Origin: a virus
Lineage: Duplodnaviria; Heunggongvirae; Uroviricota; Caudoviricetes
DNA: 64,000 bases
Direction: 5' to 3' (one strand)
IMG/VR virus record: IMGVR_UViG_3300047546_003009
In this document: one piece after another, positions 38,676 through 41,972 of the stretch
Numbering within the stretch: position 1 is the first letter of the stretch
Layout: each line of letters starts with the position of its first letter
Position numbers and translations under genes: made by a program
Notes under the pieces: generated by a model
Told to the model about the DNA's origin: nothing
Database searches by the model: none
Seen by the model: only the letters and a program-made list of their open reading frames with translations

Positions 38676-39296
38676 TTAAATGTCTTTACCATTGTAGGGC
38701 TTCATTGATCCGTTAGGTTGAACATGATGCGCGTAAAACTTGACAGTAGGATGCTTCTCGCGAAGCTTAAGAAAATGATCTAGATTACCTGTATCATCGT
38801 CATACATATGGACTTCTTTTGGTCTATGCTTGTTTATGTATCCGCTGGTAATTCTTGCTTTCTTTTGAGGACCACTTTCTTTGGTTCTAATATTACCTGC
38901 ACGGACAATATGAACCTTATCCATATTAACACCGTGCTGTTTAAATGCACCGACAAACCGTTTTTTATCGTCGAGATTTTCACGAGCGGTGTTGAATATT
39001 ACCTTGTTGCCTTTTGAAGCAGACGTTAGGCGGACGTGACTGATCATTGATTTGATTGGTTTTGATTCTTTGGAAAACTTTTCTGCTGATCTAAACTCAC
39101 CAAAGTCATATGAATGACCTTTGGGTAATGATGTACGTGAACTTTTTGCATACTCATGAGTGTCTAATGTTTTTACAACTTCACCTTTTTCATTCTTCAC
39201 TTTGATTTTTGCAGTAGGATGCACTAGCGTATCATCAATATCGTAGACATGAAGAGCGCGTGCCTCCTCACTGATAAAATCGGAAAAGCGTTTCAT
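38676..39296 (-). CDS. HAD-superfamily phosphatase with T4-like capsid-targeting N-terminus
   Basis: N-terminus MKRFSDFISEEA. HAD motif I VYDIDDTL (DxDxT). Confidence 0.55.
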   Translation of the reverse strand: MKRFSDFISEEARALHVYDIDDTLVHPTAKIKVKNEKGEVVKTLDTHEYAKSSRTSLPKGHSYDFGEFRSAEKFSKESKPIKSMISHVRLTSASKGNKVIFNTARENLDDKKRFVGAFKQHGVNMDKVHIVRAGNIRTKESGPQKKARITSGYINKHRPKEVHMYDDDTGNLDHFLKLREKHPTVKFYAHHVQPNGSMKPYNGKDI

Positions 39297-39907
39297 TTAC
39301 CAAGACCCTTTCTAACATCATTAAACAATTCACGTGAGTGTTGTTCACTACTTTGGATGTGAGAGGGCAGGTGTTTTTTGAAACTTTCATAGTCATTGTT
39401 TTCAGCATGCTTGCGCATGTCTGTACCAGAAATTCCAGCTTTGCGCTCTCCGGTTTTTAAAACACTAACTGATTTGAATCTATGTTCCGTATCTTTTCCC
39501 TCGGGACCGTGATACTCTTTAATCCGTTGATACTCACCAGCTCTATCTGAACCACCTGCAATTGTAATGTGTTGGTATCCCATCTTGTGAAGTTTTTTCA
39601 CCTGATGAAATATTGAAGGGTGTTCGGCATCAGCGACTGATACAGTCGCTTTTGGAAAAGCCCGTTTTAAATGCTTTTCCTTTTGTTCTGGTGTCAGTGG
39701 ATCTTTGTTTGGACCTGTTTTTGTTTTAGCACCGGTTGATCGCGACGCCACAACGTGTGCGTCAGCACCAATTTTTTTAGCGTGACTGACAACAGCATTA
39801 ACATTTTCTTCGTGGCCAGAAGTTGGAGGATTCATTCTTCCAAAAAGAAGGACAGCGTGTTTTTCTTTTTGTAATGCTTCTTTAATAAATGATAAGAATC
39901 TTTTCAT
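39293..39907 (-). CDS. HxGH-type nucleotidyltransferase with T4-like capsid-targeting N-terminus
   Basis: N-terminus MKRFLSFIKEAL. VLLFGRMNPPTSGHEENV carries the (H/T)xGH motif. Confidence 0.45.
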   Translation of the reverse strand: MKRFLSFIKEALQKEKHAVLLFGRMNPPTSGHEENVNAVVSHAKKIGADAHVVASRSTGAKTKTGPNKDPLTPEQKEKHLKRAFPKATVSVADAEHPSIFHQVKKLHKMGYQHITIAGGSDRAGEYQRIKEYHGPEGKDTEHRFKSVSVLKTGERKAGISGTDMRKHAENNDYESFKKHLPSHIQSSEQHSRELFNDVRKGLGK

Positions 39908-41019
39908 TATGCAAACCTTGGATTGTTTCTGATAGCGTGAGAAATTTCTTGTGGAACAAGTTTAGCAACAGGACGTTTTACACCAATCTTATCTTTCTTG
40001 AGAAGTACAATACCCTCACCAGCTGATGGCTTCTTATCAATACTGGTTGTCATATCTGGGTGATGAACGTCTTTTAGCAAATGCTCTGTTGCCTGGCCCA
40101 GGTGATGTCTGATGTCAACTGTTCTTTGAAAATGTTCTTTATTGGCATCTACTTGTGATTGCATAGTCTTGTAAGCAGCAATCTTTTTTTGCTGCCCTGT
40201 TGGCGTTTTTAATCTTTTTGCTTCTTTAACACCCGTTTCTGCGAGATGCTTTTTGTACCCCTCGACGGTTGGTTCTTTACCTTCTTTAACAGATTTGCCA
40301 ATATAAGCAGTGAAGTGTTTTACGTGCTCAGGAGTTAGATGTTCTGTTGAATGCTTGCCAAACAATGTTTCAGCCTCTGATACGTGCTTCTCAACAGCTT
40401 TCTGGTCTTCAGGTTTGTAGGTATTTGGTGTTGGCTTGTATTCGGATTGAGGAATAAACACATCTTTGTGTTTTTGAATTGCTTCTGATGTAATGGCATG
40501 AGCTGCACCACCAGTTATCTCTGTATGAGCGGCAATACCAATTTTAGCATTGTGTTTTGCACCATATGTAATACGATTTGGTGTGACTGATTGTTTGTTT
40601 TTTTCATGTTCGGTAAACATTAGGTCACCCTGAACAGTGTGACCTGGTTTTACAAACTTATGTGCATGCTCGAGCACGTTATTTAATTGAGCAGCGTATA
40701 GTGGATGGTGGCCAAAATGTTGCTCAACTTCTTCTGGTGTTCTTGCAACCTTACCGGCATCAAAACGATGCTTATCGGAAACAAATGTTCCTTCGTTGTC
40801 GTGACCGACAACAACAGAAGCACCACCATCTACTTTTAACTGGCCGGTGACAGCATTGCTTTTTCCAAGTTTATGTTGGTGGAAACCTTTGATCAGGTCA
40901 AGAGCTTCCTTTGCCTTTGAAGGATCCTCGTGTGGGATATCTTTAAGGTGTGAAAGGTGCCCTAGTTTTTCCGACTCAAGAGAAGATGCTTCTGCGAGGA
41001 AAGCGAGGAATTTAATCAT
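39907..41019 (-). CDS. KxDG nucleotidyltransferase/ligase-like protein with T4-like capsid-targeting N-terminus
   Basis: N-terminus MIKFLAFLAEA. TGQLKVDGGASVVVGHD resembles motif I (KxDG) of covalent nucleotidyltransferases. Confidence 0.35.
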   Translation of the reverse strand: MIKFLAFLAEASSLESEKLGHLSHLKDIPHEDPSKAKEALDLIKGFHQHKLGKSNAVTGQLKVDGGASVVVGHDNEGTFVSDKHRFDAGKVARTPEEVEQHFGHHPLYAAQLNNVLEHAHKFVKPGHTVQGDLMFTEHEKNKQSVTPNRITYGAKHNAKIGIAAHTEITGGAAHAITSEAIQKHKDVFIPQSEYKPTPNTYKPEDQKAVEKHVSEAETLFGKHSTEHLTPEHVKHFTAYIGKSVKEGKEPTVEGYKKHLAETGVKEAKRLKTPTGQQKKIAAYKTMQSQVDANKEHFQRTVDIRHHLGQATEHLLKDVHHPDMTTSIDKKPSAGEGIVLLKKDKIGVKRPVAKLVPQEISHAIRNNPRFA

Positions 41020-41972
41020 TTGTAGTCCATTCTCATTGTCAGTTCACGGTATTTGCCACCACTCATTCCCTTTCCTTTGGCCATGCGCATTTTGACGTCA
41101 TTGCTCGTTACTTCATCAGCTCTTTTTACGGCTGTTTGTTTTGTCTTAGGATTATAGTTTGACACAACGTGTGTGGCACTATGTTGTGAATTAGGTCCAA
41201 ACTGTCCTTGCCCTGTTGCAGCTTCTCTTGCTATGTGATTGGCCAGTCCTGGGTGTATTCCAAGAATCTTTTTATGAATAGCAGTAACATGAGCTAGGTG
41301 CACATCACGTTCTTGATCGTTTTTTGCATTTCGAACAGCCTGCATACCTTTCTTAAGTTCATCAAGATGACCGATAACTTGTTGATGTTTTTGTTTAGTA
41401 AAACTAGTATCTGTTTTGTGTAGTTGATTTGCAGCGTGTTCAATAGTTGCAGCTGTCTGCTTTGATTGAGCGGAAGCCAGCTGGCTTCCTCCATAATGTT
41501 TATAAGATACACGAATCCCTGATGGATTTTTCGTATCACCAATATGAATATCTGCTCGTGAAGTTGTATCTGTTGCACCGTGTTTTTTCCACGTATCCGA
41601 CAGCGTTGCATTTTTTGCGGCGCCCGCTACACTAGCTAGGTGACCGGATTCATGTGCTGCCTTAAAATCTCTATGGCTTGCCATACCTGAAACAGTCTGT
41701 GCTGCATGTTGTATCTGCGAGTTGTAGTGTTCCCGGGCTTGAGAACTACCAAGATCAGTTCCACTTTTGAAACCTTTAGACCCATGCTTGGCAACATATG
41801 TTTCAAAAGAAAGAGGGTGTTTGGGATTTTTTTTTGCGGCTTCGATATCCGCTTCCACATTCATCTTACCTTTCTGCACGCTGTGATTCCACACATGCGC
41901 AAAAGCATGTTCGTCACTGAAGGATGAGGTTCTTGCGGCCTCTGTTAAAAAGGAAAGAAAACGAAACATCAT
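41016..41972 (-). CDS. hypothetical protein with T4-like capsid-targeting N-terminus
   Basis: N-terminus MMFRFLSFLTEAA. It is His-rich. Confidence 0.4.
   Translation of the reverse strand: MMFRFLSFLTEAARTSSFSDEHAFAHVWNHSVQKGKMNVEADIEAAKKNPKHPLSFETYVAKHGSKGFKSGTDLGSSQAREHYNSQIQHAAQTVSGMASHRDFKAAHESGHLASVAGAAKNATLSDTWKKHGATDTTSRADIHIGDTKNPSGIRVSYKHYGGSQLASAQSKQTAATIEHAANQLHKTDTSFTKQKHQQVIGHLDELKKGMQAVRNAKNDQERDVHLAHVTAIHKKILGIHPGLANHIAREAATGQGQFGPNSQHSATHVVSNYNPKTKQTAVKRADEVTSNDVKMRMAKGKGMSGGKYRELTMRMDYK

Follow-up and report, generated by a model that had tools for sequence, protein, structure and literature searches.

The window analysed here is a stretch of 64,000 nucleotides (nt) from the virus record IMGVR_UViG_3300047546_003009. 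Four consecutive genes on its minus strand (41972-38676) encode proteins that start with M-x-x-F-x-x-F-[IL]-x-E, and we consider it likely, from sequence comparison, that this leader is a functional capsid-targeting and cleavage signal of the type known from the internal proteins of phage T4. A modular leader of about ten residues with the general form M-x-x-[F/Y/L]-x-x-[F/Y]-[I/L/V/F]-x-E is found on at least five, and probably seven, putatively late-expressed genes adjoining virion-structural genes. The leader-bearing enzymes are probably packaged in the phage head, for which the indirect support is good; cleavage, binding to the scaffolding core, injection and every biochemical activity of the cargo are inferred.

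An earlier note on this DNA had given limits and N-termini for the four open reading frames (ORFs), and all are present on the minus strand exactly as given there. The leaders on these four genes are real, while the number was set too low, as three further leader-bearing genes downstream in the late block (92, 66 and 224 amino acids, aa) had been missed. The seven genes are listed below, where a slash marks the predicted cleavage position.

41016-41972, minus strand: cargo 1, 318 aa, N-terminus MMFRFLSFLTEAA; 317 aa from the second ATG (41969), leader MFRFLSFLTE/AA
39907-41019, minus strand: cargo 2, 370 aa, DUF6267, leader MIKFLAFLAE/AS
39293-39907, minus strand: cargo 3, 204 aa, N-terminus MKRFLSFIKEAL, leader MKRFLSFIKE/AL
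38676-39296, minus strand: cargo 4, 206 aa, N-terminus MKRFSDFISEEA, leader MKRFSDFISE/EA
38492-38692, minus strand: 66-aa protein, variant leader MVKTFKQYFTKAGALDE/S, similar to that of T4 IPI
35366-36040, minus strand: FMN-reductase-like protein, 224 aa, flavodoxin-like, N-terminus MKSFNGYFVAEE; variant leader MKSFNGYFVAE/E with the Glu displaced by one position
35061-35339, minus strand: 92-aa protein, strict leader MKTFAQFLEE/K (MKTFAQFLEEK), phrog_7595

Leader register and chance expectation

The residues F4, F7, I/L8 and E10 are common to the four cassette proteins and the 92-aa protein when cargo 1 is read from its second ATG. The distance from the ribosome-binding site of cargo 1, GGAG (41979-41976), is 3 nt to the first ATG and 6 nt to the second (41969), and because of this spacing the second ATG is the likelier start. 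Read from there, MFRFLSFLTE is in exact register with the other three leaders.

We searched for the leader with the strict in-register pattern '^...[FYL]..[FY][ILVF].E', which was run at each ATG, GTG or TTG followed by at least 50 downstream codons. A looser pattern had given one false positive, UvsX, and for this reason the strict pattern was used. On the coding strand of the window 5 out of 968 candidate starts matched, all within 35-42 kb, against none out of 390 on the opposite strand. About 0.21 matches were expected (Poisson P ~3e-6), and a chance origin of the leader in the window is thus excluded.

The 5' untranslated regions of the leader genes are unrelated to one another. Furthermore, the leader genes often use different codons for the same residue; in two examples, only 1 of 6 and 2 of 7 codons for identical residues are shared. 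Both observations show that the conservation is at the level of the peptide and that no initiation region has been copied. A duplicated initiation region whose cleavage context is not conserved in homologues had been named in the earlier note as what would speak against a targeting function; we found unrelated upstream regions and a hydrophobic-x-Glu context that is kept. A Sec or lipoprotein signal peptide was also considered and rejected, since the leader lacks a hydrophobic core, carries charge and is not long enough.

Comparison with the T4 capsid targeting sequence

In T4 the first 10 residues of IPIII suffice for targeting to the head; within this capsid targeting sequence (CTS) targeting is influenced by residues 4 and 7 and processing by residues 8 and 10, and the protease gp21 cuts after the Glu (PMC9026906, a review of Black's work). 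The T4 genes themselves read MKTYQEFIAE/ARVGAGKLE/A for ipII, MKTYQEFIAE/AS for ipIII and MKTFKEFTSTTTPVSTITE/A for ipI. The leaders of the window agree with the T4 CTS at each of these positions: 4 and 7 are aromatic, 8 is aliphatic and 10 is Glu.

When run on 16 kb of T4, the strict pattern selected ipII and ipIII exactly and nothing else. No match was obtained in 20 kb of the replication region of the source phage, nor in 20 kb of the head-gene region of cyanophage S-PM2. The 66-aa protein, which falls outside the strict pattern, is akin to T4 IPI: its targeting part reads KTFKxY/F, and the first hydrophobic-x-Glu is found at residues 15-17. It is conserved in the related contigs L003, L004 and L009.

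In both systems, proteins of a T4-like phage start with a peptide of about 10 residues in which positions 4 and 7 are aromatic, position 8 is aliphatic and position 10 is Glu, mostly followed by Ala, and one strict pattern detects both. They differ in lineage, as the phages here are Kyanoviridae-like aquatic phages whereas T4 belongs to the Tevenvirinae, and in cargo, which here consists of enzymes with masses of 23-42 kDa (in S-CRM01 up to 821 aa) and in T4 of small basic proteins of 8-20 kDa. The layout also differs, with a contiguous late cassette beside structural genes in the present case. The system described here is known from its genes, whereas targeting, cleavage and injection have been demonstrated in T4. 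The packaged ADP-ribosyltransferase Alt of T4 and the ejection proteins of phiKZ and SPN3US are likewise enzymes carried in the head and processed after Glu by proteases of the gp21 family; however, their propeptides are longer and different from the 10-residue CTS, and the enzymes are other ones.

Conservation of the leader among homologues

The leader and its hydrophobic-x-Glu context are kept in homologues down to about 40 % identity. For DUF6267, 89 of 104 metagenomic homologues (45-99 % identity) have the strict motif within the first 20 residues, and in 81 it starts exactly at residue 4; the exceptions are mostly truncated gene calls or one-residue insertions. In the families of the 318-aa protein and the 206-aa HAD protein taken together, the leader is found in 58 of 76 homologues.

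A profile search with the 318-aa family against 1.84 billion representatives gave 606 matches at E<=1e-3. Among 147 new distant representatives of this family, 44 carry the strict and 75 the loose leader. One representative starts with MKTFQEFLAEARRVSG, which is identical at 12 of 16 positions to the propeptide of T4 IPII (MKTYQEFIAEARVGAG).

Isolated phages carry the leader as well. It reads MKKFSAFLTEAE in the cytidyltransferase of S-RIM8, and in S-CRM01 it reads MISFDQFLSE in the kinase g130, MKKLDQFLTE in g129, MKLFNQFFKE in the cytidyltransferase g127 and MKTFDEFLTE in the acetyltransferase g185 (L014 25046-25441). Genes 15 to 18 of the Methylophilales phage Melnitz are leader-bearing too. 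The DUF6267 proteins of cyanophages are without the leader and begin directly at a conserved HLEHLED motif.

A recurrent variant with a shorter register, M-[RK]-L-x-x-[YF]-[LI]-x-E, in which positions 3, 6 and 7 are hydrophobic and position 9 is Glu, was observed in the most distant members of the 318-aa family (P0277, P0282, P0294-P0296, P0299, P0301, P0303, P0304 and P0306). Possibly this variant serves as the corresponding signal in a different group of phages.

Modularity and exchange of cargo

The leader behaves as a portable module, occurring on at least seven unrelated cargo types irrespective of their fold. In the nucleotidyltransferase family of the 204-aa protein it is always at the extreme N-terminus, while the length of the linker before the FGRxNPPTxGH core varies between 6 residues in the window and about 70 in S-RIM8. 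In both AlphaFold2 models the leader is the only segment of low confidence (residues 1-13 and 1-11), the overall predicted local distance difference test (pLDDT) score being 91.

Between relatives with 72-99 % identity in the DUF6267 gene, the first cassette slot is hypervariable. It is occupied by four types of protein that pairwise have little in common except the leader, which is present on all four.

Window, minus strand: first-slot protein of 318 aa
L003 and L005: first-slot proteins of 227 and 229 aa, 66 % identical to each other
L004: first-slot protein of 340 aa
L009: first-slot protein of 343 aa

The HAD and FMN-reductase genes are also present or absent among relatives; the 224-aa FMN-reductase gene is missing in L004 and L009. 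A similar situation has been described for the hypervariable internal-protein loci of T-even phages, where proteins of T2, T6 and others carry CTS-like leaders without being homologous (PMC9026906, reference 69). In both cases a constant leader is combined with non-homologous cargo exchanged between close relatives, here at the first slot. The variable proteins of the present cassette differ in being 227-343 aa long, in belonging to large metagenomic families and in that they may be nucleases, and the other cassette slots are stable.

Virion proteomes of relatives and the prohead protease

The 'citidylyltransferase' of the cyanophage core (T4-GC190) and gp21 have been detected in virions of S-SM1 (Sullivan et al. 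2010, PMC3037559). For S-CREM2, mass spectrometry of CsCl-purified particles gave 52 virion proteins, and the authors noted that kinases and cytidyltransferases are subject to 'frequent detection' in virions of cyanophages, leaving open whether these are truly packaged (PMC10665884).

We assembled the whole S-CREM2 genome (OR473000) from six pieces and ran the strict pattern on it. Eight of the 3,854 candidate starts matched, and six of these are annotated starts: ORF6 ('SAM hydrolase'), ORF13, ORF14 (kinase), ORF136, ORF154 (cytidylyltransferase) and ORF175. Five of the six proteins are in the virion proteome, compared with 52 of 221 (23.5 %) for all proteins (hypergeometric P = 0.003). ORF6 and ORF14 were detected with 19 and 21 peptides, and the other three with 1, 3 and 8. 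All three virion proteins that were classed as 'regulatory' by the authors of the S-CREM2 study carry the leader. It reads MKDFDSFLEE in ORF6 (3837-5081) and MQTFSMFFSE in ORF136 (107301-108014), a hypothetical protein encoded beside the small terminase subunit. ORF12 (7704-10313), a large nuclease-like virion protein, has RFASFMAE/AA 16 residues after its annotated start; this start may be misannotated, or an N-terminal extension may be compatible with the signal.

The protease that such a signal needs in T4, gp21, is annotated in S-PM2 and S-CREM2, and a gp21-like protease is part of the S-CREM2 virion proteome. Using tblastn, gp21 was found in 2,589 phage records, with 68 % identity between S-PM2 and S-RIM8 and 41-44 % between S-PM2 and T4-type phages; it belongs to the core of T4-like phages (PMC3037559). 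When read by eye, gp23 and gp22 of S-PM2 have plausible L-N-E and I-S-E sites near their N-termini. Among the papers searched, none connects the CTS with cyanophages except for a passing mention in the Black review (PMC9026906), and we came across no earlier account of it in Kyanoviridae-like phages.

Expression context

Two elements are located 5' of cargo 1.

42015-42034, minus strand: intrinsic-terminator-like hairpin AAAGCCCCTGCAGGGGCTTT followed by a T-run, 8 pairs of which 5 are G-C, the best such site in 34.8-42.4 kb
42000-42007, minus strand: T4-type late-promoter motif TATAAATA, the downstream edge of which (42000) is 28 bases before the first ATG at 41972

The hairpin (42034-42015) closes the upstream unit directly before the cassette, and is followed by TATAAATA and then by GGAG. 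No terminator-like site of comparable strength was found on the coding strand within the four genes. An ATAAATA sequence is also present just 5' of the 92-aa leader gene (35365-35359) and of the head-protein gene at 33302. The cassette has a virion structural protein gene and a head-protein gene as neighbours, and this arrangement suggests that it may be expressed late, together with the head genes.

Gene order and origin of the phage

Every long ORF of the window is on the minus strand. The window contains a T4-type replication module (family-B DNA polymerase, UvsX/RecA, gp41-type helicase, gp44/62 clamp loader, gp45 clamp, RegA and Hsp20), the families of which were assigned via the corresponding genes of near-identical contigs, and also a late region with virion proteins. 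A megablast search of the region against 50,697 phage records gave no close relative. At the protein level, synteny was found with the Kyanoviridae, represented by the cyanomyophages S-PM2, S-RIM8, S-CRM01 and S-CREM2, Pelagibacter phage HTVC008M and Melnitz. In these phages the equivalent block sits after gp43-UvsX-gp41 and before a 'virion structural protein'. The source phage is a T4-like, Kyanoviridae-like aquatic myophage.

Identity of the cargo proteins

The three enzyme classes proposed in the earlier note were found again, one of them with a change of motif. The KxDG nucleotidyltransferase-like protein is the 370-aa DUF6267 protein, which contains LKVDGG; K62-V-D64-G65 (motif I, KxDG, with the nucleophilic lysine) is invariant in 29 to 34 aligned homologues. 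Further segments resemble, when read by eye, motif IV (EGxxxK; GEGIVLLKK, with E335-G336 invariant), motif V (xKxK; RPVAKLVP) and motif III (VQGDLMF). The protein is of the covalent-nucleotidyltransferase (ATP-dependent ligase) fold, with the fold of the adenylyltransferase domain. In other phages the ligase-like domain is fused to a PPAT/NMNAT-like transferase.

The 204-aa protein had been described as an HxGH nucleotidyltransferase. Its assignment as a nucleotidyltransferase agrees with the match to phrog_3041 'cytidyltransferase' (E 4e-41; phrog_395, E 1e-26), while the motif is TxGH as in PPAT, HxGH being found in homologues from cluster C cyanophages. FGRMNPPTSGH (PPTSGHE) and ISGTDMR are both conserved in the alignment with Melnitz, HTVC008M, S-RIM8, S-CRM01 and S-CREM2, and tblastn found the protein in 531 phage records. 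No match at E<=0.01 was obtained in Pfam or NCBIfam. These similarities support a cytidylyltransferase-superfamily (PPAT/NMNAT-like) nucleotidyltransferase, the counterpart of the cyanophage 'cytidyltransferase' detected in virions.

In the 206-aa protein the DxDxT motif of HAD phosphatases is present as DIDDT (D19, D21, T23), together with T103, K145/146 and D166-D167. These residues are invariant or nearly so in 28 aligned homologues, which also keep the leader, and the motifs support its assignment to the HAD-superfamily phosphatases. The protein has a weak match to phrog_415 'polynucleotide kinase' (E 2.8e-6), and a few homologues match Pfam PF03767. The 224-aa protein matches Pfam FMN_red (E 2e-15), with weak matches in NCBIfam.

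The 318-aa protein belongs to a large uncharacterised family and is possibly a restriction-endonuclease-like PD-(D/E)XK nuclease of the MspI/HinP1I type. This assignment is tentative because the best Foldseek match of its model in the Protein Data Bank (PDB) had an E of 1.2. Pfam gave nothing on long members of the family except one PAP2 match, and NCBIfam gave nothing for the four cargo proteins. Single-sequence phmmer searches of the PDB gave nothing meaningful for the 370-, 204- and 206-aa proteins, and profile searches of the PDB with the DUF6267 and HAD alignments gave only spurious or sub-threshold matches, such as Hsp70 with E 0.01 on the fused C-terminal part.

Genes for the synthesis of 7-deazaguanine precursors are found in the same phage, in the 10 kb past window position 64000 (L011/L012/L013 1-10000). 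They encode QueD/PTPS, GTP cyclohydrolase I, a radical-SAM QueE-like protein and a phosphoribosyltransferase-like protein, and adjoin gp46/gp47, peptide deformylase and dCTP deaminase. Deazaguanine modification of the phage DNA is possible, and would matter if the packaged 318-aa protein were a nuclease.

The earlier note had also raised the possibility of an RNA-repair set directed against anticodon nucleases. The predicted ligase fold and the HAD phosphatase are compatible with such a kit, as are the tRNA array and a Ro60-like gene nearby. No polynucleotide kinase is found among the genes of the cassette, and one cargo, the 318-aa protein, looks nuclease-like and not like a repair enzyme. 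The cassette differs from Pnkp, Rnl1 and Rnl2 of T4 in that a polynucleotide kinase domain is missing, in that there is no sequence-level similarity to the three proteins beyond motifs, and in that the T4 enzymes are not packaged. A fusion of a ligase-like protein with a PPAT/NMNAT-like transferase is, to our knowledge, an architecture unknown in RNA repair.

HTVC008M has a P-loop (GPGSGKT) kinase-like gene, gp129 (L006 6342-7004), between its DUF6267 and cytidyltransferase genes, where the source phage has no kinase. If gp129 were a polynucleotide kinase, the healing-and-sealing set would be complete in that phage.

Proposed mechanism

In the mechanism that we propose, positions 4 and 7 of the leader would bind the scaffolding core during prohead assembly, so that the protein becomes enclosed in the head. 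A prohead protease of the gp21 type would then cut after Glu10 in the hydrophobic-x-Glu context and free the mature enzyme within the capsid. At infection the enzymes would exit with the DNA and could act before phage genes are expressed. The cargo set delivered in this way would comprise a ligase-fold nucleotidyltransferase, a PPAT/NMNAT-like nucleotidyltransferase, a HAD phosphatase, the variable and possibly nuclease-like protein, the FMN-reductase-like protein and two small proteins. The proposal in the earlier note of a T4-like capsid-targeting N-terminus on a cassette of enzymes has gained strong, indirect support from the common register, the conservation in homologues, the swapping of cargo, the late-promoter motif upstream and the virion proteomes of relatives.

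Weighing of alternatives

Several observations weigh against this proposal. The residue after Glu10 (P1') varies in the window (A, A, A, E, K), compared with Ala in T4. The strict pattern has no match in the syntenic block of S-PM2, and the homologues of HTVC008M have degenerate leaders such as MKTLKELLRKK. The gp21/head module of the source phage is located neither within the window nor in the 10 kb past its end. The late-promoter motif TATAAATA occurs in three exact copies in 64 kb, with 2.9 expected, so that it is not enriched overall and the copy upstream of the cassette is positional evidence only. Proteins of 23-42 kDa must unfold for passage through the portal and tail, and the only proteins for which we know injection to have been demonstrated are those of T4 and engineered fusions. 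The evidence from mass spectrometry comes from relatives only (S-CREM2 and S-SM1), and the authors of the S-CREM2 study cautioned that abundant non-structural proteins might co-purify with the particles (PMC10665884).

The leader could bring proteins into the prohead without any delivery to the host, if the proteins have a role there (assembly, DNA condensation or chemistry inside the capsid) or are passengers that are degraded. In T4, IPIII and the core proteins are morphogenetic and most of the core protein is degraded (PMC9026906), and the late block of the window encodes both a DNA-binding protein of the Dps type and a 378-aa protein that is very basic. On the other hand, the substrates of the cargo enzymes (nucleotides, nucleic-acid ends, phosphate esters and flavin) are not expected inside a capsid, and the first cargo is hypervariable, as is typical of genes for interaction with the host. 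Moreover, IPI, Alt and CTS fusions of T4 do reach the host (PMC9026906), and we regard this explanation as unlikely. Alternatively, the leader could have a function outside the virion, as a shared docking peptide for a partner from phage or host (a chaperone, a protease-controlled activation switch, localisation to a membrane or replication factory) or as a translation booster, with co-purification, as raised for S-CREM2, accounting for the detection in virions. Proteins of A+T-rich genomes commonly begin with MK(K/R/T)F, and the peptide counts are low for three of the five S-CREM2 matches. Such a function appears improbable, since the pattern selects the experimentally defined CTS proteins of T4 and nothing else in control regions, and the conserved residues are those that T4 genetics showed to matter (PMC9026906). 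The recovery of five of six predicted proteins in the S-CREM2 proteome, two of them with many peptides, also speaks against it, as does the position of the leader genes in late and structural blocks and the conservation of the peptide with divergent codons.

Recent duplication of a translation-initiation region, or chance, without a selected function, is favoured by the adjacency of the leader genes, the stop and start codons of which overlap, an arrangement that could promote local duplication. Against this stand the unrelated upstream sequences, the differing codons and the Poisson probability in the window. Additionally, hundreds of divergent homologues keep the leader, in at least four cargo families that are unrelated, and so do several isolated phages. 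This explanation has hardly any probability left and is effectively refuted by the homologue survey. A T4-type targeting and cleavage signal remains the likely function of the leader.

Implications

A wider reading is offered as a tentative possibility, and we would not be surprised if it failed. T4-like phages that infect aquatic bacteria (Kyanoviridae and relatives) may share with T4 an ancient, portable ten-residue capsid-targeting code, which loads a swappable arsenal of co-injected enzymes (nuclease-like, ligase-like, PPAT/NMNAT-like, HAD phosphatase, FMN reductase, kinases, SAM-hydrolase-like and acetyltransferase), the cassette being a kit for counter-defence or take-over before gene expression. 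If so, the genome of any such phage would be enough to predict its injected proteome, by means of a simple sequence pattern. The kit could, for example, serve the end-healing and sealing of cleaved RNA, the resynthesis of nucleotide cofactors, or the cleavage of host or competitor DNA while sparing the modified DNA of the phage.

The mechanism is known from T4. What appears to be new is that it extends to Kyanoviridae-like phages, that it is used in nature for an enzyme cassette, and that it can explain and predict virion-associated enzymes. Kyanoviridae-like myophages are among the most abundant viruses of oceans and lakes. For the cytidylyltransferases and kinases that several proteomic studies detected in purified particles, leaving their packaging open (PMC10665884), a T4-type leader would provide both a mechanism and a predictor that uses the genome only. 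The leader points to a class of proteins that would act in the first seconds of infection, before transcription, with DUF6267 and the 318-aa protein family (more than 600 cluster representatives) as candidate injected effectors. It may also be a ready-made tag for loading foreign proteins into the capsids of non-model phages.

Neighbouring genes

Two genes of the late block lie between the 66-aa and the 224-aa leader genes.

37182-38492, minus strand: 'virion structural protein', 436 aa, phrog_1645 (E 1.5e-119), contiguous and co-oriented with the cassette
36037-37173, minus strand: very basic protein, 378 aa, without the leader, with a conserved [VI]-K-E/A site about 30-42 residues in (homologous N-termini read by eye)

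The identity of the 436-aa protein with proteins annotated as virion structural in cyanomyophages and in HMO-2011 is 47-52 %. In the homologues of the 378-aa protein from L004 and L009 the N-termini differ and the [VI]-K-E-A site is kept; the protein has a PSAYANGWAAKWYKSKGG motif at its C-terminus. It is possibly a core or internal protein with a long propeptide. The L009 homologue of the 92-aa leader protein starts with MLSFKGFLQEK.

The Dps/ferritin-like DNA-binding protein (34617-35060, minus strand; NCBIfam DpsA, E 5e-15; phrog_3636) is encoded within the late structural block, has no leader and is kept in L004. On the other side of the cassette, three small predicted membrane proteins (74, 88 and 83 aa; 42039-42768, minus strand) are encoded between the Ro60-like gene and the cassette, and are kept in L003, L004, L005 and L009.

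The Ro60-like gene (42826-44250, minus strand) lies between the tRNA array and the cassette and encodes a Ro60/TROVE-like von Willebrand factor A (vWA) protein of 474 aa, with Pfam DUF2828 and DUF7788 and a match to phrog_850 'RNA-binding protein' (E 3e-149). It is kept in L003, L005 and L009, and no Y-RNA-like family passed the Rfam gathering score. The array comprises 29 tRNA genes (45117-51805, minus strand) covering most amino acids, among which small ORFs and the gene for an HNH endonuclease (44526-45092) are interspersed. The unusual length of one tRNA-Ile(tat), 95 nt, may reflect an insertion or intron.

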